Part shown: one piece after another, positions 21,953 through 48,258 of the stretch
Layout of the letters: each line of letters begins with the position of its first letter
How positions within the stretch are numbered: the first letter of the stretch is position 1
Assembly: GCA_963814845.1 (NCBI GenBank)
Contig: CAWFEP010000008.1
Coordinates: 13,597 to 77,596 of the forward strand
Direction: 5' to 3'
Length of the DNA stretch: 64,000 nt
From: an uncultured Actinomycetota bacterium
Lineage (GTDB): Bacteria; Actinomycetota; Actinomycetes; JAFAQI01
Notes under the pieces: generated by a model
Seen by the model: the letters and a program-made list of their open reading frames with translations, nothing else
What the model was told of the DNA's origin: nothing
Databases searched by the model: none
Position numbers and translations under genes: made by a program

Positions 21953-23107
21953 CTAGTCGATGCCGCCACGGCTCACTAGCTGGCGCACGATGACGTTGCG
22001 TTGGATTTCATTGGTTCCCTCGCCGACGATCATCAACGGCGCATCGCGGAAGTAGCGCTCCACGTCGACATCGGTGGAGTAGCCGTGGCCACCATGTATG
22101 CGAATGGCGTCAAGCGCCACCTCCATACACGCTTCCGAGGCGTAAAGCTTCGCCATACCTGCCTCGAGGTCGCAGCGTTCGCCGGCGTCGAGACGTTCGG
22201 CCGCGTGCCGAATCAGGAGTTTCGCTGCGGTGATCTTGGTGGCCATGTCGGCGAGCAGATTCCCGATTGATTGGTGTTTCCAGATCGGCTTGCCGAATGC
22301 CTCTCGTTCTTGGGCGTAGCTCAAGGAGTCGTCGAACGCCGCCTGCGCGACTCCAAGTGCCCTGGCCGCGACCTGGATCCGACCGATCTCGAGGCCTTTC
22401 ATCATCTGGGTAAAGCCTTCACCCTGCTCGGCGCCCAGCAGGCTGTCTGCGGGCGCTCGGTAGTCGTCAAAGAACAACTCGCAGCTCTCGACACCCTTGT
22501 AGCCGAGTTTCGGCAACGCCGGCCCGACGGTCAGGCCTGGGCCCTTCTCGACAAGCAGGATGCTGATTCCTCGGTGTGCTGGCGTTGCCTGCGGATCGGT
22601 CTTGCACAACAAGGCGATCAGGCCTGAGCGCTCGGCGTTGGTGATCCAGGTCTTTGAGCCGTTGACCACGTAGTCGCCAGCATCACGCAGTGCGACGGTT
22701 CGGATTGACTGCAGATCCGAGCCGCCGCTCGGCTCGGTGAGCGCCATTGTGGCGCGCAATTCGCCGGTGGCGAGTTGCGGGAGATAGCGCGTCTTTTGCT
22801 CGCTCGTGCCGAACGCGACGATGAGCTTTGCAACGACGGTGTGGCCGCCCATCGCCCCGGCCAAGCTCATCCAGCCGCGCGAGAGCTCGGCGGTGACCGC
22901 GGCGTAGCAACCGGTTGAGACGAGTGAGCTTCCGTACGGCTCAGGAACAGCGAGTCCGAAGACGCCCATCTCTTTCATGACGTCGATGAGCTTCTCGGGG
23001 TAGACGTCGTCGTGCTCGAGCTCGCGAACCACGGGCCGCACTTCGGAGTCGACGAACTCACGCACGACGTCGACGATTACCGATTCCTCGTCTGACAGAT
23101 CCGTCAC
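21953..23107 (-). CDS. Acyl-CoA dehydrogenase
   Basis: ALTEPSGGSD, NGSKTWITNA, IHGGHGY, GEGTNEIQR. Confidence 0.92.
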   Translation of the reverse strand: MTDLSDEESVIVDVVREFVDSEVRPVVRELEHDDVYPEKLIDVMKEMGVFGLAVPEPYGSSLVSTGCYAAVTAELSRGWMSLAGAMGGHTVVAKLIVAFGTSEQKTRYLPQLATGELRATMALTEPSGGSDLQSIRTVALRDAGDYVVNGSKTWITNAERSGLIALLCKTDPQATPAHRGISILLVEKGPGLTVGPALPKLGYKGVESCELFFDDYRAPADSLLGAEQGEGFTQMMKGLEIGRIQVAARALGVAQAAFDDSLSYAQEREAFGKPIWKHQSIGNLLADMATKITAAKLLIRHAAERLDAGERCDLEAGMAKLYASEACMEVALDAIRIHGGHGYSTDVDVERYFRDAPLMIVGEGTNEIQRNVIVRQLVSRGGID

Positions 23108-23152
23108 GTGCCCGCCTCCGGCCCAATATGTCGTAGCATATATCCTATTGAA

Positions 23153-24421
23153 TTATTGCCCGGGGCGCCAGCGCCGCTCGTCGCGCGGCTGCGACGCCAA
23201 CCCGGTCAACACTTCCAATGCGGTGCTCCAGCCCGTCGCTAGCACGGCCTCGGCATCATCGCCGCAACAGTCCACGGCCTTCTCGCGAAGCGCTGCGTCT
23301 GTGAATGGACGCGACGGGGCGCCCAACGGCTGGGCAAGCGCGACGTGCCGGATCTCGCCATCGTGCAGGTGGATGTCCGCCTCGAACTCGCCAACAAGAA
23401 GGTCGGTGTCCTCGGGCGAGGTCAATTCGTTCTGCCCAAGGTCCGAGGTGTCGATGTCGATCAACCCGATCAGGGCCTGAGCGGCTGGGCGTCGGACGGC
23501 GGTGTCCTCGAAGCTGGCAAAGCCAGTCCTGGTATCGAGCAGCGCCGCGACGATTCCATATTCGAGACTGAACTTGCCGGTGAGGCCATCAGTCGGCCGA
23601 TGGTGAATCAACGGTTGGACGCAAGCGGCTGGCGTCCGCACCTCAATCCTGGTGATGTCCATCGGATCGAGCGGCTTCACCGTCTGGATCGCACAGATCG
23701 GGCGCTGTAGGGCGTAGCAGCACGGAAAGACCTTGATCGCCAGGCCGCCAGGGATCGCGGCCGGCTCGGCCACCTCAAGCTCGACTGCCCCTGCCTCTAT
23801 CGGGCGGCCTCGACCGAGAGCTAACCACTCGTCAACGGCTGAGGTGTCGGCGGTCGCGCCGTCACGCGCAAGCTCGGCAGCACGCACGCCTGCAGCGGCC
23901 GCGAATCCGACCTGAAGCGACTTAGCCATCGTGCCGAATGCGCGCTGCACACCGCCAGCGCCGGGCACAGCCAAGGCCAGCGCACGCGCGAGTGCTGCCT
24001 CGTCGAGGTCGAAAGCGATACCGGCCGATACAGCCGCCCCGAACGCACCCGCGGTGCAGGTCGCGTGCCAGCCGCTGGCGTAGTGCGACCAGCCGAGCAA
24101 GCGACCAACTCGGGCCATGACGCCCGCTCCGGCGAGATACGCACGACTGTCGCCGCCGGCGGCGAGGGTGGCAGGCACACACACCACGCTGATGTGGCTA
24201 GTGGACGGAATGTGCAGGTCGTCATAGTCCAGTGCGTGGCCGATCGTGGCCCAACGTGCAGCGATGGGCGTATCGGTGACGAGTGCAGCGACGGGCTCGC
24301 GCAGCGCCGCGACAGCGACAGCGGTGGTATCGATCAGCGCGCGGTCGGCCAGCCCGAATTCATCGGTTGTTGGCCGGAGACCGAGCGCCCACGTAGCGAG
24401 GCGAGAGGCGGTGTCGATCAT
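23153..24421 (-). CDS. MmgE/PrpD family protein
   Basis: HALDYDDLH..SH, GWHATCT, KVFPCC, KFSLEY. Confidence 0.88.
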   Translation of the reverse strand: MIDTASRLATWALGLRPTTDEFGLADRALIDTTAVAVAALREPVAALVTDTPIAARWATIGHALDYDDLHIPSTSHISVVCVPATLAAGGDSRAYLAGAGVMARVGRLLGWSHYASGWHATCTAGAFGAAVSAGIAFDLDEAALARALALAVPGAGGVQRAFGTMAKSLQVGFAAAAGVRAAELARDGATADTSAVDEWLALGRGRPIEAGAVELEVAEPAAIPGGLAIKVFPCCYALQRPICAIQTVKPLDPMDITRIEVRTPAACVQPLIHHRPTDGLTGKFSLEYGIVAALLDTRTGFASFEDTAVRRPAAQALIGLIDIDTSDLGQNELTSPEDTDLLVGEFEADIHLHDGEIRHVALAQPLGAPSRPFTDAALREKAVDCCGDDAEAVLATGWSTALEVLTGLASQPRDERRWRPGQ

Positions 24422-24543
24422 GGCTGTCCCATCGTGTCGCATGGCTGGCGCAGCGTCCCCTAGTGAGCGCTTTCGGCGGATCGTATATTCAGTTTTCAAC
24501 TGTAGATAGAAAACGGGAAATGAAGACAGAGTATCGAGAGTCC

Positions 24544-24575
24544 TTGACACCGGCCGTCGAGACGGGCTCTACTAC
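24544..24575 (+). promoter_or_regulatory. Putative sigma70-type promoter for the catabolic operon
   Basis: TTGACA at 24544 in an AT-rich divergent intergenic region; the -10 element is weak. Confidence 0.4.
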
Positions 24576-24676: not shown

Positions 24677-26197
24677 ATGGCCACTACGTCGCCCGCGACG
24701 CCACACGCACCTGCCGACGGACAGAAGCTCGAGAAGGGCATCCTGAGTCTCAGGAACTGCCTGGCGCTTTCCGCCGCGGTCATGGCGCCTGTTCTGGCTG
24801 TCATCCTGAACGCGCCTGCCGGAGGCGCCGACGCCGGCGCGGCCCTGCCGCTCGCGTTCTTGCTTGCCTTCATCGCGGCGCTGTTCGTTGGGAACACCGT
24901 CATCGAGTTCGCCAAGAAACTGCCGACCGCCGGCTCGTTCTATACCTTCTGCAGCCGCTCGCTCGGCAGCCTCGCCGGTTTCTTTACCGGGTGGCTTTAC
25001 GCTGCCGCGTTCGTCGTCTTGACGATCGGCCTGTTCACCGCAAACGGCGCGTTTCTCCGGTCCTACCTGCAGTCCACGTGGTCGTGGAACGTGCCGTGGT
25101 GGATCTTGGGCATCATCCTCGTCGCTATCGCGACGACGTTGTCGGTCCGCAGCATCAGAACTTCAGTGCGCCTTGACCTCATCCTGCTGGGCCTGGAGAT
25201 GTTCATCTTCGCCTTGCTCGCGCTGATCTCCATCATCAAGGCCGGCAGCGGCAACAGCTTCACCTACTTCAACCCGTCCTCGGGGCCGACCGGATACAAC
25301 GGCGTCGGCCTGGCGGTGGTCTTCGGCTTGTTGTCGTTCATCGGGTTCGAAGCCGCGGCTGTACTTGGTGAAGAGACGAACAATCCAAGGCGCAACGTTC
25401 CACTCGCCGTACGCGGCGCATTGATCGGCGTCGGTGTCTTCTTCGTGTTCGTTCTGTACGGGTTGGCGGCCGGCTTCCACTTGAACACCGCCCAAGGCCT
25501 GAAGAACTTCCTGGCCAGCCCGGCGCAGTTCACCACCTTGGCGCAGCAGAATGCGTCCTGGCTCAAGCAGCCGGTCCAGATCGCCGCGGTGTGCGGGCTG
25601 TTCTCATGCCTGCTCGCGGTGATGAACACGACCGTGCGGGTGATGTTCGCGATGGCGCGGGAGCGGATCCTGCCGCCGGCGCTCTCGCGGGTGCACCCGA
25701 AGTTCCGCTCCCCGTTCGTGTCGATCTACGCGCTGGTCGTTTTCTCCGTTGTCGTCGGACTGCTTCTCTCGAAGTGGCTCGGCTCGGGGCTCACCGACGT
25801 CTACGGCTTCACCGGCTCGGTCGGGACGATCGCGATCATCCTGGTGTATGCGATGGCCAACATCGGCTTGATCAGGTTCTATTGGGGCACAGCCGACTAC
25901 AACATCTGGCGGCACATGATCGCGCCGATCATCGGAACGGCCGTGCTGATCTACCCGCTGTACGAAACCGTGAAGCCGGGGCAGTCCTTCCCGTACAACC
26001 ACGTCAGCGAAGTGGTTATTGTCTGGATCGTCATTGGGCTCGCCGTATTTGCCTATCTGAAGAGCAAGTCACCCGAGAAGCTCGCTGCGCTCGGCGCGAC
26101 AATGGCCACCGATGAGATCGACTTCGCCGAGGCGCACTCGCCGAGCCTGTCTTCAGGAGGGCCGACTAACGTGCACCCCGCACCCGAGACGCCATGA
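24677..26197 (+). CDS. APC family amino acid/amine permease
   Basis: PTAGSFYTF, SFIGFEAAAVLGEE, RVMFAMARE; about 12 TM. Confidence 0.92.
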   Translation: MATTSPATPHAPADGQKLEKGILSLRNCLALSAAVMAPVLAVILNAPAGGADAGAALPLAFLLAFIAALFVGNTVIEFAKKLPTAGSFYTFCSRSLGSLAGFFTGWLYAAAFVVLTIGLFTANGAFLRSYLQSTWSWNVPWWILGIILVAIATTLSVRSIRTSVRLDLILLGLEMFIFALLALISIIKAGSGNSFTYFNPSSGPTGYNGVGLAVVFGLLSFIGFEAAAVLGEETNNPRRNVPLAVRGALIGVGVFFVFVLYGLAAGFHLNTAQGLKNFLASPAQFTTLAQQNASWLKQPVQIAAVCGLFSCLLAVMNTTVRVMFAMARERILPPALSRVHPKFRSPFVSIYALVVFSVVVGLLLSKWLGSGLTDVYGFTGSVGTIAIILVYAMANIGLIRFYWGTADYNIWRHMIAPIIGTAVLIYPLYETVKPGQSFPYNHVSEVVIVWIVIGLAVFAYLKSKSPEKLAALGATMATDEIDFAEAHSPSLSSGGPTNVHPAPETP

Positions 26198-26862
26198 TCG
26201 AAGTTGCGGGCAAGCAGGTCTTCACTGAACTGGCAGAGATCGTCGATCCGGCGCACACCGCGTTGGTAGTCATCGACATGCAGCGTGACTTCTGTTGCCC
26301 GGGCGGCAGCTTCGATGCTGTCGGCGTTGACCTGTCGATGTATCCGCCGGTGATCGAAACGATTGGCGAGTTGATGGCTTCGGCGCGCGAAGCCGGCGTG
26401 ATGCTCGTGTTCATCCAGATGACCGTGCTGCCCAATCAGGCCAGCGACTCACCGGCGCAGATCAGGTTCAACCTACGGATGCACGACGAGCACCACGGCG
26501 ATGTGGATCCGCTTCGCTACACCCTCGACGGGTCCGAGGGACAGAGGTTCGTGCCTGGCCTCGAGCCGCTCGACGGCGAAGTTGTCGTGAAGAAATACCG
26601 CTCGAGCGGCTTCTGGGGCACAAACCTCGACCTGGTGCTGCGGAGCAACGGCATCAAGTCCGTTGTGATCGCCGGATGTACGACCGAGGGCTGCGTCGAG
26701 TCGACCGCTCGTGATGCGATGTTCAACGACTACTACGTGGTTATCGCCACTGACGCAGTCGCCAGCGACGATCGCTTGCAACACGATGCGTCGATGTATC
26801 TCATGGCGCGCCGCTTCGACCTCGCCACCTCCGAGTTGATTCGCAAGAACTGGGCGGCGTAG
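26194..26862 (+). CDS. Isochorismatase-family cysteine hydrolase (amidase)
   Basis: ALVVIDMQRDF, KYRSSGF, TEGCVESTARD (Asp-Lys-Cys triad). Confidence 0.9.
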   Translation: MIEVAGKQVFTELAEIVDPAHTALVVIDMQRDFCCPGGSFDAVGVDLSMYPPVIETIGELMASAREAGVMLVFIQMTVLPNQASDSPAQIRFNLRMHDEHHGDVDPLRYTLDGSEGQRFVPGLEPLDGEVVVKKYRSSGFWGTNLDLVLRSNGIKSVVIAGCTTEGCVESTARDAMFNDYYVVIATDAVASDDRLQHDASMYLMARRFDLATSELIRKNWAA

Positions 26863-26952: not shown

Positions 26953-27705
26953 ATGACGGGAAAGCTCGAATCGAAGATCGCAATCGTCACTGGTGGAGCA
27001 CGAGGCATCGGCGGTGAGATCGCGATGGCGTTTGCCGCTGAAGGCGCCGACGTCGTTATCGCAGATCGCCTCGACGAAGCCGCAGCGGCGCCCGTGTTGG
27101 CAGCGATCGCCGCGTCCGGTCGCCGCGCGCTGTTCGTCAACACCGACGTGTCCGACGAGCAGCAAGTGCGCAGGATGGTCGACACGGCAATTGCCGAGTT
27201 CGGCAGGGTCGACGTTCTGGTCAACGATGCCGGCACCGTCAGTCAGGTCGCCTTCGACGAGCTGGACGTCGCGGAGTTCGATCGGGTGCTTGGCGTCAAC
27301 CTGCGGGGAGTGTTCCTCTGTAGCCGGTTCGTGATCGGCGGCATGCTGGAGCGCGAGAGCGGCGTGATCATCAACGTTGCCTCACAGCTGGGCCAGATCG
27401 GCGGCATCGAGATGGTTCACTACAGCGCGAGCAAGGCCGGGGTGATCGGCCTCACGAAAGCGCTGGCGCGCGAGGTGTCGACCAGGGGCATCCGGGTCAA
27501 CGCGATCGCGCCAGGGCCGATCTTGACGGACATGATGGCCGAGGAGACCGAGGAGTGGGCGGCGCGGAAGCTCGCTGAGCTCCCCATGGGACGGTTCGGT
27601 CAGCCGCACGAAGTGGCGCCGACCGCGGTGTTCCTGGCGAGTGACGACTCCTCTTATTACGTCGGACAGACGCTCTGTCCCAATGGCGGGGACGTCATGC
27701 TCTAA
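26953..27705 (+). CDS. SDR family oxidoreductase (FabG-like)
   Basis: TGGARGIG, YSASK, NAIAPG. Confidence 0.9.
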   Translation: MTGKLESKIAIVTGGARGIGGEIAMAFAAEGADVVIADRLDEAAAAPVLAAIAASGRRALFVNTDVSDEQQVRRMVDTAIAEFGRVDVLVNDAGTVSQVAFDELDVAEFDRVLGVNLRGVFLCSRFVIGGMLERESGVIINVASQLGQIGGIEMVHYSASKAGVIGLTKALAREVSTRGIRVNAIAPGPILTDMMAEETEEWAARKLAELPMGRFGQPHEVAPTAVFLASDDSSYYVGQTLCPNGGDVML

Positions 27706-27716
27706 GGAGGCACAAC

Positions 27717-28493
27717 ATGTTTGAACTTGATGGTCGGGTCGCCCTCATCACAGGCGCCGCCTCCGGCATTGGTGCTGCCACGGCCCGGGTCTTTGCGGAA
27801 GCCGGCGCGAATGTTGCGCTCGCGTGGTACCCGCCGGACGGTCACGACGTCGGGCTGGTGGAGGAGGCGGTCGCGAAGGCCGGCGGTCGATCGATTGCCG
27901 TCGAGGTCGATGTGCGACGAACGGCGGACGTGGATGCGATCGTTGCTCAGGCCGTCGCTGAGTTCGGCAGTCTGGACATCGTCGTCGCAAACGCCGGGAT
28001 CGCGCGCAAGGTCGCGTTGGAAGACCTCGACGACGAGGCGTGGAACACCGTGATCGACGTGGATCTCAACGGTGCCTGGCGCTGCTTCCGGGCGGCGTTG
28101 CCGCACATGCGTAGCGCGGGTTACGGCCGCTTGATCGCGACGTCGTCGATCGCCGGCACCGTGCAGGCGTGGCCGGCTCACCCGCATTACACCGCGGCGA
28201 AGGCGGGCCTCGTCGGCCTCATCAAGACAATGGCGGTGGAGTACGGCCCTGACGGAGTCACCGCGAATGCCGTCGCGCCGGGCGTGATCGATACGCCGCA
28301 GGCGAACGACCCGGTCAACTCTCTCGGCCCGGATGGCGTACGCGCGGTCGCGCCGAAGGTGCCATCCGGTCGGGTCGGCCAGCCCGAGGACATTGCCTAC
28401 CTCTACCAATATCTCGCCAGCGAGCAGGCGTCCTACGTCAGCGGTCAGCTGATCGTGGCTGATGGGGCGCGTTACCTCTCGGGGCTGGACTAA
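27717..28493 (+). CDS. SDR family oxidoreductase
   Basis: TGAASGIG, ANAG, YTAAK. Confidence 0.9.
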   Translation: MFELDGRVALITGAASGIGAATARVFAEAGANVALAWYPPDGHDVGLVEEAVAKAGGRSIAVEVDVRRTADVDAIVAQAVAEFGSLDIVVANAGIARKVALEDLDDEAWNTVIDVDLNGAWRCFRAALPHMRSAGYGRLIATSSIAGTVQAWPAHPHYTAAKAGLVGLIKTMAVEYGPDGVTANAVAPGVIDTPQANDPVNSLGPDGVRAVAPKVPSGRVGQPEDIAYLYQYLASEQASYVSGQLIVADGARYLSGLD

Positions 28494-28496: not shown

Positions 28497-29633
28497 GTGT
28501 CAGTGCTTCCGACACCCGGGATCATCTCTTTCGCGCGCGGCATTCCTGCGCCGGAGATGTTCCCGACCGTCGAGCTTGCCGAGGCTTCGCGGCGAGCGTT
28601 TCAGAAGCACGGCGCCACGGCGCTTAACTATGGTCGGCCCGGAGGCTTCCCGCCGCTGCAGGATTGGATCGCTGAGCGCCATTGCGCCAGGCCGGATCAG
28701 GTCATGATCTCGCCGGGATCCTGCCTGCTGTTGAGCCTTCTGGTCCGGGCGCTGGTGCCGACCCCGCGCCCGGTGCTCGTCGAGTCGCCGACCTATGACC
28801 GGATGAACACGCTGCTGCAGCGGGCCGGAGCGCAGGTCGTGCCCATCGATCGTGGTCACGACGGGCTCGATCTCGTCGCTGTCGAGGCCAATCTCAACAC
28901 TGGCGCGCGCCCAGCGTTCTTCTACGTCATGCCGACATTGCACAACCCCACCGGGACATCGCTTCAGTTGGCAGAGCGGGAACGGCTCGCAGCCTTGGCA
29001 ATTCACCACGACCTGCTGCTTGTCGAGGACGATCCGTACGGCCTGCTTCAGGTGGACGGGCCGGTGCTGCCGTCGATGCGCGAACTGCTCGAAGCAAGAG
29101 GCTTCGGGCATCTCAGCGTGTTTATTTCGTCGTTCTCGAAGATCATCGCGCCTGGTCTGCGGGTCGGCTACGCGGTGTTGCCCGCATCCCTGATCGAGCC
29201 GCTGTCCGCGCTCGCGCTTGAGACCTACGTCTCGCCGCCGTTGTGGCCGCAGGCCGAGATCTACGAGTTCGTCACGGCAGGCTTCCTGACGCCGCAGCTA
29301 GAGCGGCTTCGGTTCCTCCTCCGCGCCAAGCGCGATGCCCTCCTGGATGGGCTGAGCGCAGGCTTGGCCGGGTCCGCGCGGTGGACGCACCCGTCAGGCG
29401 GCTACTTCTCCTGGCTGGAACTGCCGGAGGGGATCCGCGCGAGTGAGCTGTTGATCGACTGCGAGAGTGCGGGCGTGAGCTTCATCGCAGGATCGGGCTT
29501 CTTCGTCGGGGGCGGCGGCGAGCAGGCGGCCCGGCTCTCATTCAGTTATCCGGCCGTCGAGGACATTGGAGCCGGTGCCAGCCTCTTGGCCGATGCGGTG
29601 AAGCGGCAGCAGCACAAAGTCGGAGCGGGTTGA
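28497..29633 (+). CDS. PLP-dependent class I aminotransferase (2-aminoadipate transaminase-like)
   Basis: ISFARGIP, HNPTG, EDDPY, SFSKIIAPGLRVG; no N-terminal HTH. Confidence 0.88.
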   Translation: MSVLPTPGIISFARGIPAPEMFPTVELAEASRRAFQKHGATALNYGRPGGFPPLQDWIAERHCARPDQVMISPGSCLLLSLLVRALVPTPRPVLVESPTYDRMNTLLQRAGAQVVPIDRGHDGLDLVAVEANLNTGARPAFFYVMPTLHNPTGTSLQLAERERLAALAIHHDLLLVEDDPYGLLQVDGPVLPSMRELLEARGFGHLSVFISSFSKIIAPGLRVGYAVLPASLIEPLSALALETYVSPPLWPQAEIYEFVTAGFLTPQLERLRFLLRAKRDALLDGLSAGLAGSARWTHPSGGYFSWLELPEGIRASELLIDCESAGVSFIAGSGFFVGGGGEQAARLSFSYPAVEDIGAGASLLADAVKRQQHKVGAG

Positions 29634-30070
29634 TGGACGAACGACGAGGCGACTTGCTGCTCACGGATGACCAATCACAGCTGGACCTGCCCACGATTCA
29701 TGGCTGGTTGTGTGACGAGGCGTACTGGTCGCTCGGCCGCTCTCTCGAAGCGGTCACGGCATCCATCCGCCATTCTGATTCCTACGGTGTGCTGAAGGCG
29801 GGGAAGCAGGTTGGCTTCGCCCGCGTGATCAGCGATGGCGTGAGTTTCGCCTACATCTGCGACGTATTCGTTGCTGCGGCCAACCGTCGGCAAGGCATTG
29901 GCCGCTGGTTGGTGGAGCGGATGATCGCCGACTTGCGCGCGAAAGACGTCAGGCAGGTGTTGCTCGCCACTCGAGACGCCCACGCGCTTTACCAGCGGGC
30001 AGGATTCCATACCTTGACCCGACCAGAGCGTTGGCTCGAGCTTGACCCGACCGTTGCAGGAACGACATGA
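29630..30070 (+). CDS. GNAT family N-acetyltransferase
   Basis: QVGFARVISD, RRQGIG, DAHALY..GF. Confidence 0.88.
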   Translation: MMDERRGDLLLTDDQSQLDLPTIHGWLCDEAYWSLGRSLEAVTASIRHSDSYGVLKAGKQVGFARVISDGVSFAYICDVFVAAANRRQGIGRWLVERMIADLRAKDVRQVLLATRDAHALYQRAGFHTLTRPERWLELDPTVAGTT

Positions 30071-30080
30071 GGAGACCCTG

Positions 30081-31859: not shown

Positions 31860-31863
31860 TCGG

Positions 31864-36920: not shown

Positions 36921-37464
36921 GGTCGCGACTGTGATTGTGGCGACGCTGCCCGACGCGGTGTGCGTGTCGTCGCTCGGCACGGCGACGTCAGCGCTGCGGT
37001 TAGCGTCGAACGACGGACCGCACCTCTATCTCGGTGCCTCGATGGGTTCGGCCCTTGCGACCGCTATGGGCGTCGCCGAGGCCGTGCCCGAACGCACAGT
37101 CGTGGCATTGCTCGGCGACGGCGAGCTGCTGATGGGTGCAGGTGCGTTGTGGTCGGTGTCGGCCTACCGGCCGCACAACCTGCTGACTGTCGTGCTCTGC
37201 GATGGTGCGTATGCCATCACCGGGGGCCAGCCACTTAGCGGACCCACTCGCTTCAGCGAAGTCGCCGTGGCTCTCGGTGGTATGTCGGGACGTCGAGTGG
37301 ACAGCGGTGACGAGTTGCGCCGAGCACTCGTCGACCTTGACCGGCCGGGTGTAATCGAAGTCGAGCTGAGTGGTCGTGAGTGGCCGGGACCGTCACCATT
37401 CGTCGATCCGGCCAGAGTGCGCCGCGAGTTCGAGACGGGTCTCGCCGGACCGGCCGCCTCATGA
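36907..37464 (+). CDS. ThDP-dependent decarboxylase beta subunit (ComE-like)
   Basis: ASMG, GDGELLMG, YAITGGQ; overlaps the alpha-subunit stop. Confidence 0.8.
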   Translation: MKATEVATVIVATLPDAVCVSSLGTATSALRLASNDGPHLYLGASMGSALATAMGVAEAVPERTVVALLGDGELLMGAGALWSVSAYRPHNLLTVVLCDGAYAITGGQPLSGPTRFSEVAVALGGMSGRRVDSGDELRRALVDLDRPGVIEVELSGREWPGPSPFVDPARVRREFETGLAGPAAS

Positions 37465-37501
37465 ACCCGAACACCGGCGACACGAATGGTGGGAGCCTGC
37501 T

Positions 37502-38983: not shown

Positions 38984-38993
38984 CGAGAAATCG

Positions 38994-40588: not shown

Positions 40589-40619
40589 TGAGGCTTGCCG
40601 TGAGAAAGGGACCGTGCTG

Positions 40620-41891
40620 ATGACCATGCGTCGCATCGTGGACATCCTGACCGTGCCGGGGCGCACTGGCTTCTTCGCCGACGATCAGCTCGCGATCCGG
40701 GAAGGCGCGACGCATGACGGATTCGGCTACGTCGGCAAGCCACTGACGCCGGGGTTCAGTGATATCCGCCAACCCGGCGAGGCGTTGTCCGTGTTGCTCG
40801 TCTTGGATAACGGCGACATCGCGCACGGCGACTGCGCGAGTGTGCAGTATTCGGGAGCCGGGGGACGAGATCCAGTGTTCTCATCGGCGGCGGCTGCGAC
40901 CGCAGTGGCTGAGCATGTTGCGCCCCTGCTGGTGGGCGCCGAGGCGGACAGCTTCCGGGCGATGACGGCGAGGATCGACACGATCCAGGCCGATGGCCGG
41001 CCGTTGCACACAGCGGTTCGATATGGCGTGAGCCAGGCGATCCTCGATGCGGTGGCACGCGTCGGTACATGACGATGGCCGAGGTTGTTCGGGACGAGTA
41101 CGACACCGGGATCGACATCGCACCGGTGCCGATGTTCGTGCAGTCGGGCGACGAGCGGCACGACTCGGTCGACAAGATGATTCTCAAGGAAGCCGGCGCG
41201 TTGCCGCACGGCTTGATCAACAGTGTTGAGGGCAAGCTCGGTGTGCGCGGTGAGTTGCTTGCTGACTATGTGACCTGGGTCCGTGATCGGGTGCTCGCTC
41301 TGCGGCGGCGGCCGGACTACGAGCCGACGCTGCACTTCGACACGTACGGCACGATCGGCTTGATCTTCGATGCGGACATCATGCGGATGGCGACGTATCT
41401 CGCCGAGCTTGGTGTGCGAGCGGCGCCCTTCCGCCTCCGGATCGAGCATCCGGTCGATGCCGGTAGCCGTGACGGGCAAGTCGCGGCGCTGGCCTCGCTT
41501 CGAACCGAGCTACGCCGTCTCGGTTCACCGGTCGAGCTGGTGGTGGACGAATGGTGCAACACGCTCGCCGACATCGAGGTGTTCGTCACGGCGCAAGCTG
41601 CCGATATGATTCACGTCAAGACGCCAGATCTCGGCGGGGTCAACCACACCGCCGAGGCGCTGCTGCTCGTTCGCGCGCAACGGCCTGGCCGCGTATTGCG
41701 GCGGGACGTGCAACGAGACTGATCGCTCTGCTCAGGTGACCGCGCATGTTGCGATGGCCTGCGGGGCAGACCAGATTCTGGCCAAGCCGGGTATGGGCGG
41801 TGACGAAGGCATGATGATCGTCGGCAACGAGATGGCGCGCACGGCCGCCCTCGTGCGTGCTCGTGGCGAGGCAACGACGGTGCTGCCGTGA
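40620..41891 (+). CDS. mal: Methylaspartate ammonia-lyase (two frameshifts)
   Basis: GFFADDQLAI, GDCASVQYSGAGGRDP, QSGDER, LPHGLIN, HFDTYG, DEWCNT, KTPDLGG, AYCGGTCNETD, LAKPGMG. Confidence 0.9.
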
Positions 41892-43110
41892 AGCCGCTCG
41901 AGGATGTGCGGATCCTCGCGATCGAGCAGTTCGGCGCTGGTCCGTTCGGCAGCGTCCACCTCGCCGACCTCGGCGCCGAGGTCATCAAGATCGAGGATGC
42001 CGCGAACCGGAGGCGACGTCGGTCGGTACATGCCGCCGTTCCAGGACGGGCGAGGACAGCCTGTTCTTCGAGACGTTCAACCGCAACAAGAAGAGTCTGA
42101 GCCTGGACCTTGCGCAGCCGGCCGGCCGACGGGTGTTCGAGGATCTGGTACGCGTCAGCGACGTCGTCTACTCCAACCTCCGTGGGGACGTGCCGGCGAA
42201 GATCGGGATCACGCTACGACGACCTGCGCGAGCTCAACCCGGCGATCGTCTGCTGCTCGCTGAGCGCGTTCGGCATGACCGGCCCGAGCCGCGACGAGCC
42301 GGGTTATGACTACGTGCTTCAGGGCATCGCCGGATGGATGTCGTTGACCGGTGAGCCGGAGGGCCCGCCGAGCAAGTCAGGCTTGTCGATGGTCGACTTC
42401 TCCGGCGGACTGGTCGCCGGGCATGGCCATCCTGGCCGGAGCTGCACGCCGCGCGCCGCGACGGCGTCGGTGCGGACTGTGACGTGTCGTTGTTCGATAC
42501 CGCGCTCTCGATGTTGTCCTACCAGGCGACCTGGCATCTCACCGGAGGGGTTCGTGCCGCAGCGTAAGGGCCGATCCGCGCACCCGTCGCTGGTGCCGTT
42601 CCAGGCGTTCAACGACCGCGGATCGGTGGATCGTGGTCGCCTGTGCGAAGGAGAAGTTCTTCCCGCGACTGGCTCGAGGTGCTCGGCCGGCCCGATCTCG
42701 CCAGCGATCCGAGGTTCGTCGGCTTCGCGGAGCGTAGGGCGAAGCCGCTGAGCTGCAGGCGATTCTCGATGAGATCTTCGCCAGTCGCGGCGCCGAGGAG
42801 TGGCTGACGTTGCTGGCCGCCGCCGGCGTGCCTTGCGGTCCGGTCAACAGCGTGGCCGAGGCGTTGGCCGAACCACAGACGGCGGCGCGCGACATGATCG
42901 TCACGACCGAGCACCCGCACTTCGGACGGTACGCTCAGGTCGCGAGCCCGGTTCGCGTGGGTGACGACGACGCCGGTCGTATGGCCGGGCGTCCGCGACG
43001 ACATGAGAACGCCGACGAGCTGTTCACCGAACTGCTTGGCTACGACGAGACAACCGTCCGTGACCTGGTCTGGCGGGGGAGCCTTCGGACCAGGGGAGGG
43101 GCACGCATGA
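41888..43110 (+). CDS. Family III (CaiB/BaiF) CoA-transferase, multiple frameshifts
   Basis: AGPFG..LADLGAEVIKIE, NRNKKSLSLDL, PGYD..QG, GVPCGPVN; GTGA overlap with mal. Confidence 0.85.
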
Positions 43111-43664
43111 CGCTGCGAGCCGGCTGGCAGGGCCGGTACTTCGAGGACTTCGAGGTCGGTGACGTCTATCGCCACCCACTCGGCCGGACCGTGAGCGCGA
43201 CCGACAACACGTGGTTCACGATGCTGACCCAGAACACTGCGCGGGTGCACTTCGACGCCCACTACGCGAGCCAGACGGAGTTCGGTCAGCCGCTGGTCGA
43301 ACTCCACCCTGACTCTTGCGCTTGTCACCGGCCAGTCGGTGACCGACGTCTCGCAGAACGTCTTCGCCAACCTCGGCTGGGACGAGGTGCGGCTGCCCCA
43401 TCCGCTGTTCGAGGGCGAAACGGTCTACTCGAGCTCCGAGGTGCTGTCGAGGCTCGCCAGTCGCGAAGCCGGCCGCAAACTGGGCTCGTCACGGTTCGCA
43501 CGAAAGGATTCACCCCGGAGGGCAAGGTGGTGATCACCTTCAAGCGCACGGTGATGGTCTACCTGCGCGGCCACGGGCCGACCCAGCCGGAGCCGACCGG
43601 TGAGGCAGCTGGACTGGCAGCTGCCAGGGCCGGCGATGCTGTTCTGCCCGGCCGATCGCCCTGA
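43107..43664 (+). CDS. MaoC-family acyl-CoA hydratase (itaconyl/mesaconyl-CoA hydratase-like), frameshifted
   Basis: GRYFEDFEVGD..H..GRTV..TDNTWFT.LT.N...HFD, ANLGWDEVR; ATGA overlap with the CoA-transferase. Confidence 0.82.
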   Translation: MTLRAGWQGRYFEDFEVGDVYRHPLGRTVSATDNTWFTMLTQNTARVHFDAHYASQTEFGQPLVELHPDSCACHRPVGDRRLAERLRQPRLGRGAAAPSAVRGRNGLLELRGAVEARQSRSRPQTGLVTVRTKGFTPEGKVVITFKRTVMVYLRGHGPTQPEPTGEAAGLAAARAGDAVLPGRSP

Positions 43665-44435
43665 CCGATTCGCGAAGGCGGCGGCGGTCGCTGACGTGCG
43701 TCATCCTCGACCTCGAGGACGGCGTCGCGCCGTCCGCCAAGGAGCTTGCCCGAGCGCGCTGCGAGAGTCCGCGCTCGACCCGGCAGCACCGTCGTACGCA
43801 TCAACGCGCCAGCACGGAGGACCACGTCCGCTCGATCTCGACGCACTCGGCGGCGACACCGTACGACGTGGTGATGTTCGCGAAGACCGAACGTCGCAGC
43901 GCAAGATTCAGGCGTTGTCGTCGTTCCAGGTGATCGCGCTCGTCGAGACGCCGGTTGGCGTGCTGGCGGCGCCCGAGATCACGCCGCAGGTGTCGTTGGA
44001 GTCATGTGGGGCGCTGAAGACTTGGTCGCTGCTCTGGGTGGCCGATCAAGCCGACTGCCCGATGGTCGGTTCCGCGATGTCGCGCAGCACGCCCGGTCTA
44101 TCGGTGTTGCTCGCCGCCGGAGCGAACGGCGTCTGGGCGATCGATTCGGTGTTCATCGACATCAGCGACCTCGCCGGCGTTGCCGAGCAGGCTGACGACG
44201 CCGCGGCGTCAGGGTTCGACGCAGTGGCCTGCATTCACCCTTCGCAGGTCGACGTGGTCCGGGATGCCTTTCGCCCCACTGCCGACGAGGTCGACTGGGC
44301 GAGCCGGGTGGTCGCAGCGGCAGTAGGTGCGCGCCGGGGTCTTCACGGTGCGACGGACACATGGTCGATGTCCCGGTGATACGCCATGCGCAGAACATCC
44401 TCGACCGATCCGCGCGAGCACAGCACCAAGCGTGA
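43600..44435 (+). CDS. citE: HpcH/HpaI/CitE family acyl-CoA lyase (citramalyl-CoA lyase-like), frameshifted
   Basis: GPAMLFCPADRPDRFAKA, ILDLEDGV, LVET..G, MWGAEDL, ACIHPSQV, MVDVPVIRHA. Confidence 0.82.
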
Positions 44436-44457: not shown

Positions 44458-45633
44458 TCAGTAGACCATCGCGGTCGGCACCGGCGCCGCGTCGCCGTCG
44501 AAGCGCGCCAGCTGAAGGCTCCGGACATCCAGGCTGGTGATGGCGCCGTCGACGACCTGCTCAGCGACGAGGCGCCCGAGCTCAGGCGCTTGCATGACGC
44601 CGTGACCAGACAGCCCGCACACGTTGATCCACGTCGGCGCACCCGGATATGGCCCGACGATTGCGCGCAGGTCAGGGGAGTTGTCGTACGTGCCGGCCCA
44701 GGCGCCGGTGCGGTCGAGCGGCAGGTCGCACAGCCAGGGGAACCGTTCGGCCGCGATTCCCAGCACAGACTCCATCCACGGCCAGTCCAGGGCGATGTTG
44801 TAGCCGTCCACCTCGTCCGGCCGGCTTGCTCCGAACAGCAACCGCGGACCGTCGCTGCGCAGATACACCCCGGTGGCAAGGTCGATCGTCATCGGGAGGG
44901 ACCTGGCGATGGCGCCGGGCGCGGTCGAATAGATGTTGCGTCGCGAGTGCACCACCGGCACGACCAAGCCCGCCAGCGCTGCCAGCTCACCCGACCAGCC
45001 ACCCGCGGCGTTGACCACGTGCTGGCTGCGGATGGTCGTGTCGCCGGCGGTCAGGACCCATTCCGCCGTGGCGTGGTTGGTCTCGATCGCTGTCACGCGG
45101 TGCCGGTAGGAGACCCGCGCGCCGAGCTCGCGCGCCATAGACAGGAACGCGGCAGTCGCGAGGTGCGGGTCGACCATGCCATCGGCCGACCCCCACGTCG
45201 CGCCGGCGATGCCATCTCCGGCAAACGGGGTGATGCGTTGCGCCGCTTCGACGCTCAGGACGTCGACCGGCACCCCGTGCGCTCGCTGCAGTTCGACAGC
45301 GGCAAGATGCTCGGCCCAGCTGGTGGCTGGCACCAGCAGGAGATAACCGGTTGGTCGATACCCCACGTCATGCCCATGGTCGGCCGCGAAGTCGCGGTAG
45401 CGACAGATGCTGCGCCACGAGATTTCGATGTTCAGCGAATCGGCCCATTGGCCGCGTACGGAGGCGAACGAGCGTCCGGAGTTTCCCTCCGCAGGGCCGT
45501 TGAAGGCTTCGAGCACCGTGACGTTGAGCCCGCGGCGCGCCAGCTCGTAGGCGCAGGCGGCCCCAATGATGCCGGCGCCGACGACCGTCACGTCACTGCA
45601 GAGCGCCCGGTCCTGCGCAATCTCGGAGCCCAC
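44458..45633 (-). CDS. FAD-dependent oxidoreductase, DAO/sarcosine oxidase beta family
   Basis: VVGAGIIG, VVNAAGGWS, WAGTYD..PD, GLSGHGVMQAP. Confidence 0.88.
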   Translation of the reverse strand: MGSEIAQDRALCSDVTVVGAGIIGAACAYELARRGLNVTVLEAFNGPAEGNSGRSFASVRGQWADSLNIEISWRSICRYRDFAADHGHDVGYRPTGYLLLVPATSWAEHLAAVELQRAHGVPVDVLSVEAAQRITPFAGDGIAGATWGSADGMVDPHLATAAFLSMARELGARVSYRHRVTAIETNHATAEWVLTAGDTTIRSQHVVNAAGGWSGELAALAGLVVPVVHSRRNIYSTAPGAIARSLPMTIDLATGVYLRSDGPRLLFGASRPDEVDGYNIALDWPWMESVLGIAAERFPWLCDLPLDRTGAWAGTYDNSPDLRAIVGPYPGAPTWINVCGLSGHGVMQAPELGRLVAEQVVDGAITSLDVRSLQLARFDGDAAPVPTAMVY

Positions 45634-45695: not shown

Positions 45696-47324
45696 ATGAG
45701 CGTTCCTGCCGCCCGGACCGGGCTCTTCCCGATCGGACCGACCACCCCGCGCGGGTACGCGCTGGACTCACCTGAGCGGGCCACAACGGCCAAGGCGCTC
45801 GATGAGGTACGCGGTGCCAGCTATGACATTCCGCATCTGATCGGTGGACGGGAGGACTTCACTGGTCGCGCGCGAGCGGTCGTCACGCCCCATGAGCACG
45901 CCACTGCACTCGGCCAGTTTCACAGCGGCGGCCGGGCCGAAGCTGAAGCGGCCATCGAGGCAGCTGCCGATGCGGCGACGTGGTGGAGCGAGCTGCCGTG
46001 GGAGCAACGTGCGGCACCGTTCCTGCGTGCCGCTGACCTGCTCCAATCCGGGCAGTGGCGAGACCGACTGAACGCCGCCACGATGTTGGAGCTGTCCAAG
46101 ACGACCTATCAGGCCGACATCGACGCCGCCTGCGAAACCATCGATTTCATCCGGTTCAACGTCAAAAACATGTTGGCGATGTATGACGTGCAGCCCGGAT
46201 CCCTGCCGGGGATGTGGAACCAGGCGGAATATCGACCGCTTGAGGGTTTCGTCTTCGCGGTCACCCCGTTCAACTTCACCTGCATGAACAATCTTGCGTT
46301 CGGTCCGGCGTTGCTCGGCAACACCGTGGTGTGGAAGCCCGCCGAGAGCGCCTCGCTTGTGGCTCACCTGTCGATGCAGTTGCTGCGCGAGGCAGGGCTG
46401 CCGGATGGCGTGGTCAACGTGGTCTACGGCGACGGTGCGGAGATCGGCGCCGAGGTCCTCAAGCACCGCGACCTTGCCGCCGTGCACTTCACCGGCTCAA
46501 CCGCGACGTTCCAGCACATCTGGCGCACCGTCGGCAACAACGTCGCCAACTACCGCAACTATCCGCGCGTGGTGGGGGAGACCGGCGGCAAGGATTTCAT
46601 CGTGGCCCACCCAAGCGCCGACGTGGACGCGCTCGCGGTCGCGTGCATCCGGGGGGCATACGAATACCAAGGTCAGAAGTGCTCAGCGCCCTCCAGGCTC
46701 TACGCGCCTCGCAGCATGTGGCCGTCACTCAAGGAGCGACTCGTCACGTTGACTGAGTCAGTGGTGGTCGGCGATCCGACCGAGGCCAGCACCTACGTCG
46801 GCGCGGTCATCAATGCCCGCCAGCACGCGAAGCACGCAGCCGCACTTGCCCGGGCCCGCGCCGAGGGTCTCGTCGTTGTCGGTGGCAACACCGACGACTC
46901 GGTTGGCTGGTTCGTCGACCCGACCATCCTGGAGGTGACCGATCCGCTGTCTTCGTTCATGACCGACGAGTTGTTCGCACCGGTGCTGACCACCTACGTC
47001 TACGACGACGCAGACTGGGCGGCCACACTGCGGCTCGTCGATTCATCGACCGCTTATGGCCTGACGGGTGCAGTCTTCGTCAACGACCGAGTTGCCGAGC
47101 AGCAGGCCGATGAGATCTTGCGCTATGCCGCCGGGAATTACTACATCAACGACAAGCCCACCGGATCGGTTGTGGGACAGCAACCGTTCGGCGGCGCGCG
47201 AGCCTCGGGCACCAACGACAAGGCCGGAACAGTATGGAACCTGATCCGCTTCGCCAGCCCCAGGTCGATCAAGCGCAACCATCTGTCCGTCACCGACTAC
47301 CGCTACCCCCACCTCGACAGCTAG
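45696..47324 (+). CDS. pruA: L-glutamate gamma-semialdehyde (P5C) dehydrogenase-like ALDH
   Basis: DAACETIDF, YRPLEGFV, YPRVVGETGGKDF, EYQGQKCSA, INDKPTG.VVGQQPFGG.R.SGTNDKAG. Confidence 0.85.
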   Translation: MSVPAARTGLFPIGPTTPRGYALDSPERATTAKALDEVRGASYDIPHLIGGREDFTGRARAVVTPHEHATALGQFHSGGRAEAEAAIEAAADAATWWSELPWEQRAAPFLRAADLLQSGQWRDRLNAATMLELSKTTYQADIDAACETIDFIRFNVKNMLAMYDVQPGSLPGMWNQAEYRPLEGFVFAVTPFNFTCMNNLAFGPALLGNTVVWKPAESASLVAHLSMQLLREAGLPDGVVNVVYGDGAEIGAEVLKHRDLAAVHFTGSTATFQHIWRTVGNNVANYRNYPRVVGETGGKDFIVAHPSADVDALAVACIRGAYEYQGQKCSAPSRLYAPRSMWPSLKERLVTLTESVVVGDPTEASTYVGAVINARQHAKHAAALARARAEGLVVVGGNTDDSVGWFVDPTILEVTDPLSSFMTDELFAPVLTTYVYDDADWAATLRLVDSSTAYGLTGAVFVNDRVAEQQADEILRYAAGNYYINDKPTGSVVGQQPFGGARASGTNDKAGTVWNLIRFASPRSIKRNHLSVTDYRYPHLDS

Positions 47325-47344
47325 CACTGAAAGGAGCGGGACGC

Positions 47345-47794
47345 ATGGTGAACAAATCACTTCAGACGCTTCATCATCTCTGCATCGTGGTTCACGACAT
47401 CGACGCCTCGGTCGCTTTCTACACCTCGATCGGGATCGGCCCATGGCAGGACTATCCACCGCTTGATCAATACACCGTCCTGTCGGTGCCGGACCCGGAT
47501 GCCTTCATGGCGTTGAAATACAAGTTCGTCAATCTTGGCAACGTGCAGCTTCAGCTGTGCGAGCCGCCCCAGCGTGATTGCGCGCAGCGTCGTTTTCTCG
47601 ACGCCAAGGGCGAAGGAGTGTTCCATCTCGGGTTCGAGGCGGATCTCGATACCGCGGTGGCTGACGCAACCGCAGTCGGCCTCGACGTCATGATGCGAGG
47701 CGAGCGAGAGAACGGATCTGGCTTCGTCTACTACGACACGCTCGACGCAGCCGGGGTCGTGATCGTGAACCGCAAGACCGTCACGCCGGCATGA
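47345..47794 (+). CDS. VOC family protein (methylmalonyl-CoA epimerase-like)
   Basis: LHHLCIVVHDID, QLCEP, FLDAKGEGVFHLGF. Confidence 0.8.
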   Translation: MVNKSLQTLHHLCIVVHDIDASVAFYTSIGIGPWQDYPPLDQYTVLSVPDPDAFMALKYKFVNLGNVQLQLCEPPQRDCAQRRFLDAKGEGVFHLGFEADLDTAVADATAVGLDVMMRGERENGSGFVYYDTLDAAGVVIVNRKTVTPA

Positions 47795-47817
47795 GCCGGC
47801 GATAGGGAGATCACCAG

Positions 47818-48258
47818 ATGTCGACAGCAGCCAGCTTGCCCCCGTTCCATCTCGCGATACCGGTCGTGGACATCGACGCCGCCAGACACTTCTACGGTGA
47901 CGTGATGGGGCTCGCGCAGGGGAGATCCGACCTCCGATGGACAGACTGGAACCTGTTCGGTCATCAGCTGGTGACTCACGAGGTGTCTGACTCGGTCGGC
48001 TTCGAGCCTGTTGCGGGCATGAGTGCCGTCGATGGTCATGAGGTGCCCGTGCCGCATTTCGGGGTGGTTCTGACCGTTGATCAGTTTCAGGAGTTGGCCG
48101 CGCGACTTGACGCCATGCACGTGAACTTCGTGATCCGGCCATACCTGCGTTTTGCGGGCGATCCAGGCGAGCAGTGGACGATGTTCTTCCTGGATCCGTC
48201 CGGCAACGCCCTGGAGTTCAAGGCGTTCGCGGACATCGAGCAGCTCTTCGCGACGTAG
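47818..48258 (+). CDS. VOC/glyoxalase family protein
   Basis: PFHLAIPV, GHQLVTH, VPVPHFG, DPSGNALEFKAF. Confidence 0.88.
   Translation: MSTAASLPPFHLAIPVVDIDAARHFYGDVMGLAQGRSDLRWTDWNLFGHQLVTHEVSDSVGFEPVAGMSAVDGHEVPVPHFGVVLTVDQFQELAARLDAMHVNFVIRPYLRFAGDPGEQWTMFFLDPSGNALEFKAFADIEQLFAT

Follow-up and report, generated by a model that had tools for sequence, protein, structure and literature searches.

A recurrent actinobacterial operon that links a permease and C-N hydrolases to methylaspartate ammonia-lyase

What does a bacterium consume when it encodes methylaspartate ammonia-lyase (MAL) in one row with a permease and C-N hydrolases? To our knowledge, the only physiological partner known for MAL is glutamate mutase, both in glutamate fermentation and in the methylaspartate cycle. 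The question is raised by a 64,000-nucleotide stretch of actinobacterial DNA, here called the window (G000:C8:13597-77596; assembly G000 holds 3.6 Mb in 18 contigs at 66% G+C). An inventory of its genes by open reading frame (ORF) listing and Pfam/NCBIfam scans agrees with the original prediction, made from the letters alone, of 21 co-oriented and often overlapping plus-strand genes at 24677-44435 and of their families; 4-nt start/stop overlaps lie at 26194, 29630 and 34525. On balance we favour the reading that this cluster feeds a small nitrogen compound, for which a saturated cyclic imide or ureide or its amide is the likeliest candidate, via L-threo-3-methylaspartate into central metabolism, that it is an imported operon and that the breaks in its genes are assembly errors. 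The operon is real, recurrent, uncharacterised and made of familiar parts. Every enzyme family and sub-module has a known counterpart; what sets the cluster apart is the combination, in which hydrolases behind a permease funnel into MAL and no glutamate mutase was found. The prediction had known of no characterised pathway for this combination, and we found no description of the operon in the open-access full-text literature (MAL with isochorismatase, gene cluster, mesaconyl-CoA or amidohydrolase).

On its domain scores and residues, the window MAL is a genuine member of its family. Both domains exceed the family cut-off (PF05034, 204 bits; PF07476, 235 bits), and the fragments into which the assembled gene falls match TIGR01502 with 179 and 260 bits (cut-off 286). 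The intact MAL of locus L011 (L011:9560-10828) aligns gap-free to 1KCZ and keeps Q73, F170, Q172, H194, D238, E273, D307, K331, Y356, T360, C361 and L384; the same active-site residues are read in the window fragments. In the numbering of the Clostridium tetanomorphum enzyme, we take H194, K331, D238, E273 and D307 to be the catalytic bases and Mg ligands, F170, Y356 and L384 to form the methyl pocket, and Gln329 to be the enolate-binding residue. The sole change among the residues checked is at this last position, where the clostridial Gln329 is His in both the window MAL (41063-41674) and L011. MAL is single-copy in G000, and a six-frame search of that assembly, rated 55% complete despite its long contigs and genus-typical size, gave no match to the glutamate mutase E subunit (PF06368). 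Since no mutase was found, the methylaspartate should come from the upstream enzymes of the operon.

The genes that accompany MAL indicate where its product goes. MAL is tightly coupled to a family III CoA-transferase, to an Ich-like MaoC protein and, at the loci that show one, to a CitE-like lyase, so its product should be a dicarboxylate from outside the tricarboxylic acid cycle, such as mesaconate, rather than fumarate. The best NCBIfam matches of the CoA-transferase are the succinyl-CoA:mesaconate and succinate-glutarate transferases, below cut-off. Those of the orthologues in the congener G004 are RipB/Ich for MaoC (188 bits, cut-off 340) and RipC/Ccl for CitE (129 bits, cut-off 375), and the MaoC of locus L045 scores 208 bits against RipB/Ich. 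The methylaspartate routes of glutamate fermentation and of the haloarchaeal cycle comprise glutamate mutase, MAL, a mesaconate CoA-transferase, a mesaconyl-CoA hydratase and a lyase. The window likewise follows MAL with enzymes for CoA activation, hydration and C5-dicarboxylate cleavage, and conserves the catalytic and methyl-pocket residues of MAL; it differs in its permease and C-N hydrolases, in the change of Gln329 to His and in that no glutamate mutase was found in G000.

The cluster is built of three layers: a core operon, an extended form and a resident module. A scan of a genome collection with the C-terminal fragment of MAL returned 80 loci, 8 in Bacillota and 72 elsewhere, the latter in Actinomycetota (Acidimicrobiales, Microbacteriaceae, Cryobacterium, Nocardioides, Nonomuraea and others) and in a few metagenome-assembled genomes (MAGs) labelled otherwise (two Gammaproteobacteria and one Acidobacteria). 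The core operon comprises a permease, an isochorismatase-like amidase, a short-chain dehydrogenase/reductase (SDR1), MAL, the CoA-transferase, a second such enzyme (SDR2) and a PuuE-like hydrolase. We counted neighbours at the 72 non-Bacillota loci using intact query proteins, at <=9 kb from MAL and >=38% identity (>=55% for the SDRs); with less than 4 kb of flank on one side at 22 loci, the figures are undercounts. CoA-transferase accompanies MAL at 43 loci, SDR1 at 36, the isochorismatase-like gene at 32, GntR at 30, MaoC at 25, the PuuE-like gene at 22, SDR2 at 21, the APC permease at 20, PALP at 4 and the GNAT acetyltransferase at 3. All five core partners stand beside MAL at 14 of the 72. 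The gene order is fixed: PALP, MaoC and GntR, each optional, on one side, then APC permease, isochorismatase-like gene, SDR1, MAL, CoA-transferase, SDR2, PuuE-like gene and, optionally, GNAT. The prediction had asked whether its sub-blocks co-occur elsewhere, and MAL does adjoin the permease, isochorismatase-like, SDR and PuuE-like genes in many genomes; because the same gene sets recur elsewhere, the co-orientation in the window is more than chance. ORF clustering of 21 core-type loci revealed no further widely shared gene, and the 8 Bacillota MAL loci have none of the counted neighbours and no synteny. Two loci (L021 and L053) carry a CitE-like lyase beside MaoC, and L021 has a Liv-type ABC transporter in place of the permease.

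A strong MAL occurs in 4 of 301 genomes sampled across the class (G000, G255, G290 and G083, the last three in variant contexts) and in 0 of the 12 other genomes of the G000 family; the unpublished members of the sample (G032, G040, G049, G055, G060, G067 and G278) gave no strong MAL match. These genomes were also part of a DNA comparison with relatives, in which no syntenic copy of the whole region was found. The two gammaproteobacterial MAGs (L048 and L051) carry CoA-transferase, isochorismatase-like gene, SDR1, MAL, SDR2, PuuE-like gene and PALP, with an APC permease further on, suggesting that the operon has passed from one phylum to another. Of the two, L048 was annotated, and there the core operon adjoins a TonB-dependent receptor. 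No transposase or integrase family was found by Pfam among the window ORFs scanned, nor any mobile-element boundary; there is no tRNA within the window, and a scan for promoters and terminators there found sites no commoner than in shuffled sequence.

Variation among the MAL loci bears on what the upstream enzymes do. SDR2 and the PuuE-like gene form a constant pair (21-22 of the 72 loci), with SDR2 directly upstream in type-1 loci. In variant loci the equivalent positions are held by another ring hydrolase (Amidohydro_1 or creatininase) or another linear amidase (amidase signature, M20 or Asparaginase_2). Because these loci swap in other ring hydrolases and linear amidases, ring or amide hydrolysis followed by MAL is the favoured logic. 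A second operon type (L015:1833-12030) runs from APC permease, isochorismatase-like gene and SDR1 through a gamma-glutamylputrescine-synthetase-like ligase, Amidohydro_2, an SDR and GATase_4 (EgtC-like) to MAL and CoA-transferase, and recurs in L017, L018, L020, L031, L033, L036, L043, L044, L046 and L054. Here the ligase, Amidohydro_2, SDR and GATase_4 replace SDR2 and the PuuE-like gene, which suggests a gamma-glutamylation route into the MAL step.

The extended form adds two nitrilase-family amidases (C-N hydrolases 1 and 2, CNH1 and CNH2), a cyclase-family hydrolase, a GntR regulator, ComDE and an aldehyde dehydrogenase (ALDH). With the cyclase-family protein as query, metagenomes yielded 35 loci, of which 10 (L111-L120, 77-82% identity) share window neighbours and the other 25 share the cyclase only. 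One of these, L116, is an intact row, described as one of 16 genes, of APC permease, isochorismatase-like gene, SDR1, SDR2, PuuE-like gene, CNH1, cyclase, CNH2, GntR, ComD, ComE, ALDH, MAL, CoA-transferase, acyl-CoA dehydrogenase (ACAD), hotdog hydratase and GNAT. L114 and L120 agree with this order, and amino acid identities in the three loci are 50-85%. The hydrolase block, ComDE, ALDH, MAL and CoA-transferase thus form a single co-linear operon in L114 and L116, so that the outcome named in the prediction as a refutation, sub-blocks that never co-occur, does not hold. In L111 and L112, RraA occupies the CNH1 position and ComE is followed by a thiamine diphosphate (ThDP) enzyme. The aminotransferase (AT) is confined to the window version, occurring at none of the 72 MAL and none of the 35 cyclase loci.

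The third layer comprises ACAD, MmgE/PrpD, CoA-transferase, MaoC and CitE families. In the congeners G004, G003 and G001, PALP is followed directly by MaoC (and CitE), and in G004 an ACAD gene lies just upstream of PALP-MaoC; all three lack the equivalents of window 23.1-35.3 kb and 36.3-43.1 kb. This matches the mosaic make-up that had been suspected. The two stretches are either insertions relative to the congeners or losses in them. PALP and ACAD are resident genes; ACAD is a candidate methylsuccinyl-CoA-type dehydrogenase, with 71% identity (tblastn) to the ACAD that follows the CoA-transferase in L116, and the MmgE/PrpD protein is a candidate methylsuccinate isomerase-like enzyme. We propose that the imported operon entered a resident locus of ACAD and PALP-MaoC-CitE as two separate insertions.

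ACAD and MmgE/PrpD had been taken for a mere divergent flank. Together with CoA-transferase, MaoC and CitE they make up the five families of the itaconate/methylsuccinate cluster of Pseudomonas and Cupriavidus, which joins Ict, Ich and Ccl to a methylsuccinyl-CoA dehydrogenase of the ACAD family and an MmgE/PrpD methylsuccinate isomerase (PMC12290011). The five families lie within window positions 21953-44435, and the same end products, pyruvate and acetyl-CoA, would result. The likeness has limits: the window genes are not contiguous, being separated by 12 kb and 6.7 kb of other genes, the scores for Ich and Ccl (G004 orthologues) are far below the equivalog cut-offs, and ACAD and PrpD correspond at family level. 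The window set is also fed by an ammonia-lyase, and its host is an actinobacterium, not a proteobacterium.

Layers of such different distribution could be independent modules for different substrates: the core MAL operon; aminotransferase, RraA and omega-amidase; ComDE, ALDH and ThDP enzyme; and the itaconate/methylsuccinate set. We regard this as doubtful, though far from negligible. Content does vary by locus: none of AT, RraA, CNH1/2, cyclase, ComDE, ALDH, ThDP enzyme, ACAD, PrpD and CitE is counted beside any of the 72 MAL loci, L111/L112 carry RraA where L114/L116 carry CNH1, and PALP-MaoC-CitE stands alone in the congeners. However, L116 and L114 present one tight co-oriented row from the hydrolase block to ACAD under a single regulator, and the window genes overlap or abut.

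Under the favoured reading of one route into MAL, we propose six steps, of which the first four are drawn from families, residues and gene order, with the substrate given as candidate classes only. The compound would be taken up by the APC permease (step 1; a Liv-type ABC system in other genomes), SDR2 would oxidise a ring carbinol to a cyclic imide or acyl-urea (step 2), the PuuE-like CE4 hydrolase would open the ring without a metal (step 3) and the isochorismatase-like amidohydrolase would remove the amide or carbamoyl nitrogen (step 4). MAL would then deaminate 3-methylaspartate to mesaconate (step 5), for which the family evidence is strong and the active-site residues are conserved, and the CoA-transferase would form mesaconyl-CoA, MaoC citramalyl-CoA and CitE pyruvate and acetyl-CoA (step 6). 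ACAD and MmgE/PrpD would let methylsuccinate-type acids enter the same hub. In some lineages only, an add-on layer of nitrilase-family amidases, cyclase, aminotransferase, RraA, ComDE, ALDH and ThDP enzyme would join in; it may, by a weaker line of reasoning, handle regio-isomeric half-amides through a transaminase/omega-amidase/decarboxylase side route. The predicted outline of uptake, ring opening and deamidation, a beta-substituted aspartate and C5 cleavage is thus favoured by the evidence; its chemistry is read from sequence. A role of ComDE in sulfonate or phosphonate catabolism was considered and set aside, the ThDP enzyme being generically acetolactate-synthase-like. The ComDE pair scores below the equivalog cut-offs (alpha 125.8 against 148, beta 79 against 221.5), as does that of L116.

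Steps 2 to 4 have a fungal precedent. In the lower nicotinate pathway of Aspergillus nidulans, the SDR HxnW oxidises a hydroxy-lactam to a cyclic imide, HxnM, a PuuE/HpPgdA-related imidase, opens the ring, and the amidase HxnN releases ammonia (PMC9304392). The proposed order of SDR, CE4-type imidase and amidase is the same, and at 21-22 loci an SDR gene is the immediate neighbour of the CE4 gene. Unlike the fungal pathway, the window system is bacterial, its amidase is isochorismatase-like rather than of the amidase signature family, its operon is without ring-reducing or hydroxylating enzymes, and its product must be an amino-dicarboxylate for MAL instead of 2-hydroxyglutarate.

The two hydrolases themselves show informative residues. 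The PuuE-like protein matches PuuE structures over its full length (296-298 bits to 3CL6 and 1Z7A; 264 bits to 3S6O), keeps the NYEEG, HGYRW and IGxHxR positions when aligned with the PuuE and 3S6O motifs, and has Glu-His-Trp in place of the Asp-His-His metal triad. According to one report, this metal-independent triad is that of PuuE and of the imidase BpIH, which is 61% identical to PuuE and 91% to 3S6O, and cyclic imidases occur among PuuE relatives (PMC11424739). The window protein stays below the NCBIfam cut-off for allantoinase PuuE (333.8 against 424.6 bits), and its context is without purine-degradation genes. The isochorismatase-like protein keeps a catalytic triad (D in VIDMQRDF, K in VVKKYRSSGF, C in TTEGCVEST) that aligns with RutB and TrtA; its best structure matches, at 96-115 bits, are of the BiuH, TrtA, RutB and N-carbamoylsarcosine amidase type, and it falls below all equivalog cut-offs (BiuH 125.6 against 370, RutB 109.3 against 378).

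The same residues speak to a scheme of N-acyl protection, in which GNAT would acetylate an amino alcohol or diamine, the SDRs would oxidise it and the CE4 protein would deacetylate the product to 3-methylaspartate. Such a route would parallel the variant loci with gamma-glutamyl ligase and hydrolase genes, namely the type-2 loci (L015 and others) in which a GS-like ligase, Amidohydro_2, SDR and GATase_4 stand for SDR2 and the PuuE-like gene, and GNAT adjoins the CE4 gene in the window, L045 and L111. We nevertheless consider it quite unlikely: where deacetylases have an Asp-His-His metal site, the CE4 protein shows the metal-independent Glu-His-Trp arrangement shared by PuuE and imidases (PMC11424739), and GNAT is present at just 3 of the 72 loci.

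The original prediction overlooked that 7 of the 21 (GntR, PALP, ThDP enzyme, MAL, CoA-transferase, MaoC and CitE) run in several frames as assembled. The GntR gene runs through three frames. In PALP the 5' end is shifted: the body, read from 35320, does not share the frame of the ATG at 35283. Breaks number two each in MAL and MaoC, at least three in the ThDP enzyme, at least one and probably four in the CoA-transferase, and several in CitE. In all, at least 14 frame changes fall within 34.9-44.4 kb and none in the genes of 21.9-34.9 kb, and the genes at 21953-34528 keep a single frame over their full length against intact relatives. A greedy ORF-length statistic was blind to the problem; counting by orthologues revealed it. 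We translated 230 long ORFs from 400 kb of the congener G004 and kept 139 orthologues in G000 (>=60% identity and >=60% cover), of which 31 had at least one frame change; the total of 60 over 181 kb amounts to 0.33 per kb. Among them are genes of 94-95% identity with 2-4 changes, rpoB of G000 is spread over three frames, and a second patch (C3:278-294 kb) contains seven split genes, up to 95% identical to G004, with about 17 frame changes. The indel errors of G000 are strongly clustered in patches.

Independent DNA bears on the same breaks. Contigs of four soil-metagenome runs from four studies were aligned to 36300-44500, the shares of matching words in such runs being small (5-15%); window stretches that they do not cover are uninformative. 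Pieces near-identical to the window (0-6 other letters in 150-380 nt) show an added A behind 41060 and a deletion of one letter at 41674 in MAL, on one contig each, and deletions of one letter at 39921 (three runs) and 39318 in the ThDP enzyme, all of which restore the frame. Contigs of greater divergence show further indels, at 42418/42442 and 43699-43906. Because rpoB and 31 of the 139 orthologues are split too and the soil contigs have frame-restoring indels, the breaks at 34.9-44.4 kb are most likely assembly errors and not gene decay. Decay of the right half (34.9-44.4 kb) into pseudogenes would account for at least 14 frame changes in 9.5 kb after none in the preceding 13 kb, against a genome-wide mean of just 0.33 per kb. 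This is improbable given that an essential gene and a second patch are broken as well, that genes 94-95% identical to G004 carry 2-4 breaks, that there are no deletions or premature truncations, with every segment of MAL and the other genes kept at high identity, and that the indels are absent from the soil contigs.

Elsewhere in the window, an MFS transporter (14212-15387) is divided into two ORFs, LigD (57628-60019) shows a primase-polymerase domain broken in two, with the ligase part behind it, and a sugar transporter (8894-10426) stops at position 338 of a profile of 452 positions. In another few-contig genome of the class, too, MAL (G083:C4:300387-301128) is read in two frames, which may be an artefact of the same kind. 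From the end of the CoA-transferase to the Met of MaoC (…RGGARMTLRAG…; 42738-43664) the assembled frame has no stop codon, either through a hidden indel at a 4-nt overlap or as a natural fusion.

Another reading, very unlikely in our view, makes the PuuE-like protein a true allantoinase, with the left block serving ordinary ureide (purine) catabolism and MAL no more than its neighbour. The full-length match to PuuE with its catalytic motifs kept and the resemblance of the isochorismatase-like protein to ureide amidohydrolases would fit such a role; the score well short of the PuuE equivalog cut-off (334 against 425 bits), the constant pairing of the gene and SDR2 within MAL operons (at 21-22 of the 72 loci) and the finding of no allantoicase, ureidoglycolate lyase or uricase in the annotated loci speak against it. 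Classical glutamate catabolism, with a mutase encoded elsewhere, is hardly credible: MAL is otherwise known from the glutamate mutase pathway and G000 is rated incomplete, but the six-frame search did not find PF06368 and there is no synteny with the 8 Bacillota MAL loci.

Several observations count against our favoured reading of hydrolysis followed by MAL. The proposed steps are read from sequence, and every equivalog cut-off but that of MAL is missed (PuuE 334/425, BiuH 126/370, Ich 188/340, Ccl 129/375). With His at position 329, the MAL substrate could differ from 3-methylaspartate, and at 55% completeness a missing glutamate mutase is no proof of absence. SDR1 has no step assigned to it, ACAD is superfluous if the MAL product is already unsaturated, and in the window SDR2 and the PuuE-like gene are 1.5 kb apart, with the aminotransferase and GNAT between them. 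The add-on genes, beside none of the 72 genome loci, are known only from 10 metagenome contigs, several of them apparently from one project. Three of the four frame-restoring indels are each seen on a single contig, at depth 2.4-3.5.

A more specific version of the hydrolytic route is tentative, and we would sooner doubt than assert it. Soil actinobacteria would have a B12-independent route to 3-methylaspartate from a natural, so far unrecognised 3-methyl-branched cyclic imide or ureide, through oxidation, a PuuE-like imidase, deamidation, MAL and the itaconate/methylsuccinate hub. Candidate substrates are 3-amino-4-methyl-succinimide-, 5-methyl-dihydroorotate- and carboxyethyl-hydantoin-type compounds, or a matching amide.

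MAL shares a conserved operon with C-N hydrolases and a permease, a mutase was looked for in G000 without success, and the arrangement recurs in many actinobacteria of soil and cold habitats. Some carriers of the core operon are cultured: Cryobacterium aureum Hh31 (L021), Cryobacterium ruanii Sr36 (L028) and Nocardioides allogilvus KCTC 49020 (L042). This implies a natural source of 3-methylaspartate yet to be recognised and an uncharacterised nitrogen-scavenging pathway. If the more specific version is true, MAL would gain a second physiological role and an environmentally common nitrogen compound would still have to be named. The recently described itaconate/methylsuccinate hub would also extend to actinobacteria. 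MAL and the PuuE-type imidases, BpIH among them, belong to families with known biocatalysts, to which the loci add new members. A practical point for those who scan genomes is that patches of indel errors in a long-contig MAG can look like an island of pseudogenes.

Table 1. Genes of the cluster and its flanks, in window coordinates (21953-48258).
Gene or product	Position	Strand	Evidence and remarks
Acyl-CoA dehydrogenase (ACAD)	21953..23107	-	Pfam; tblastx 77% amino acid identity to congener G004
MmgE/PrpD family protein	23153..24550	-	Low-scoring domain matches (about 66 bits each); adjoins no related locus
APC-family permease, first gene of the operon	24677..26197	+	Stop overlaps next start; 72% identity to L116
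Isochorismatase-like cysteine amidohydrolase	26194..26862	+	Asp-Lys-Cys triad; nearest BiuH, RutB, TrtA
SDR1 (FabG-like)	26953..27705	+	Directly upstream of MAL in other genomes
SDR2	27717..28493	+	Directly upstream of PuuE-like gene in other genomes
Class I/II aminotransferase (MocR-type AT domain)	28497..29633	+	Pfam/NCBIfam
GNAT acetyltransferase	29630..30070	+	In L111 (70% identity), at operon end in L116, at 3/72 MAL loci
PuuE-like metal-independent CE4 cyclic amide/imide hydrolase	30042..31037	+	NYEEG, GHGYRW, IGIHPR; 82% identity to L116
RraA-like protein (HMG/CHA aldolase or oxaloacetate decarboxylase family)	31098..31859	+	77% identity in L111/L112; not in L114/L116
Nitrilase-superfamily C-N hydrolase 1 (CNH1)	31789..32673	+	Homology from 31870; in L113-L120
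Cyclase-family hydrolase PF04199 (kynurenine formamidase/isatin hydrolase type)	32698..33651	+	Pfam
Nitrilase-superfamily C-N hydrolase 2 (CNH2)	33674..34528	+	Pfam/NCBIfam
GntR/FCD regulator	34525..35276	+	Three frames; breaks near 34902, 35027
PALP, threo-3-hydroxy-L-aspartate ammonia-lyase-like	35283..36297	+	434 bits against cut-off 452; 73% identity to G004
ComD-like	36366..36920	+	Half of ThDP 2-oxoacid decarboxylase; sulfopyruvate/phosphonopyruvate decarboxylase family
ComE-like	36898..37464	+	Other half of split ThDP 2-oxoacid decarboxylase
Aldehyde dehydrogenase (ALDH)	37370..38983	+	Homology from 37505
Acetolactate-synthase-like ThDP enzyme	38946..40588	+	At least 3 breaks, near 39320, 39537-39638, 39921; in L112, not L114/L116
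Methylaspartate ammonia-lyase (MAL)	40554..41891	+	Three frame segments; breaks about 41060, 41674
Family III CoA-transferase	41888..~43090	+	Nearest succinate-glutarate, succinyl-CoA:mesaconate transferases; several breaks
MaoC/Ich-like enoyl-CoA hydratase, resident gene	~43095..43664	+	Two frame changes, 43298-43455
CitE/Ccl-like acyl-CoA lyase, resident gene	~43600..44435	+	Several frame changes
DAO-family FAD oxidase	44458..45633	-	Pfam
PruA	45696..47324		Above equivalog cut-off
Two VOC genes	47234..48258		Pfam

Of the flanks that had been predicted, ACAD, MmgE/PrpD, PruA and VOC are as described, and the DAO gene is actually on the minus strand; a plus-strand ORF that overlaps it (44386-45699) has no family match. 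DAO, PruA and VOC, which had been named as flanking genes, adjoin no related locus and probably lie outside the cluster, with a separate function. Further along the window, a TauD-family dioxygenase and an ABC transporter (NMT1-like binding protein, permease and ATPase) lie on the minus strand at 50509-54369 and are followed by a luciferase-like monooxygenase at 55727-56623, in what looks like a cluster for scavenging sulfonates or similar compounds. At 8023-10426, a gene for a GAF-ANTAR antitermination regulator immediately precedes one for an MFS sugar-type transporter.

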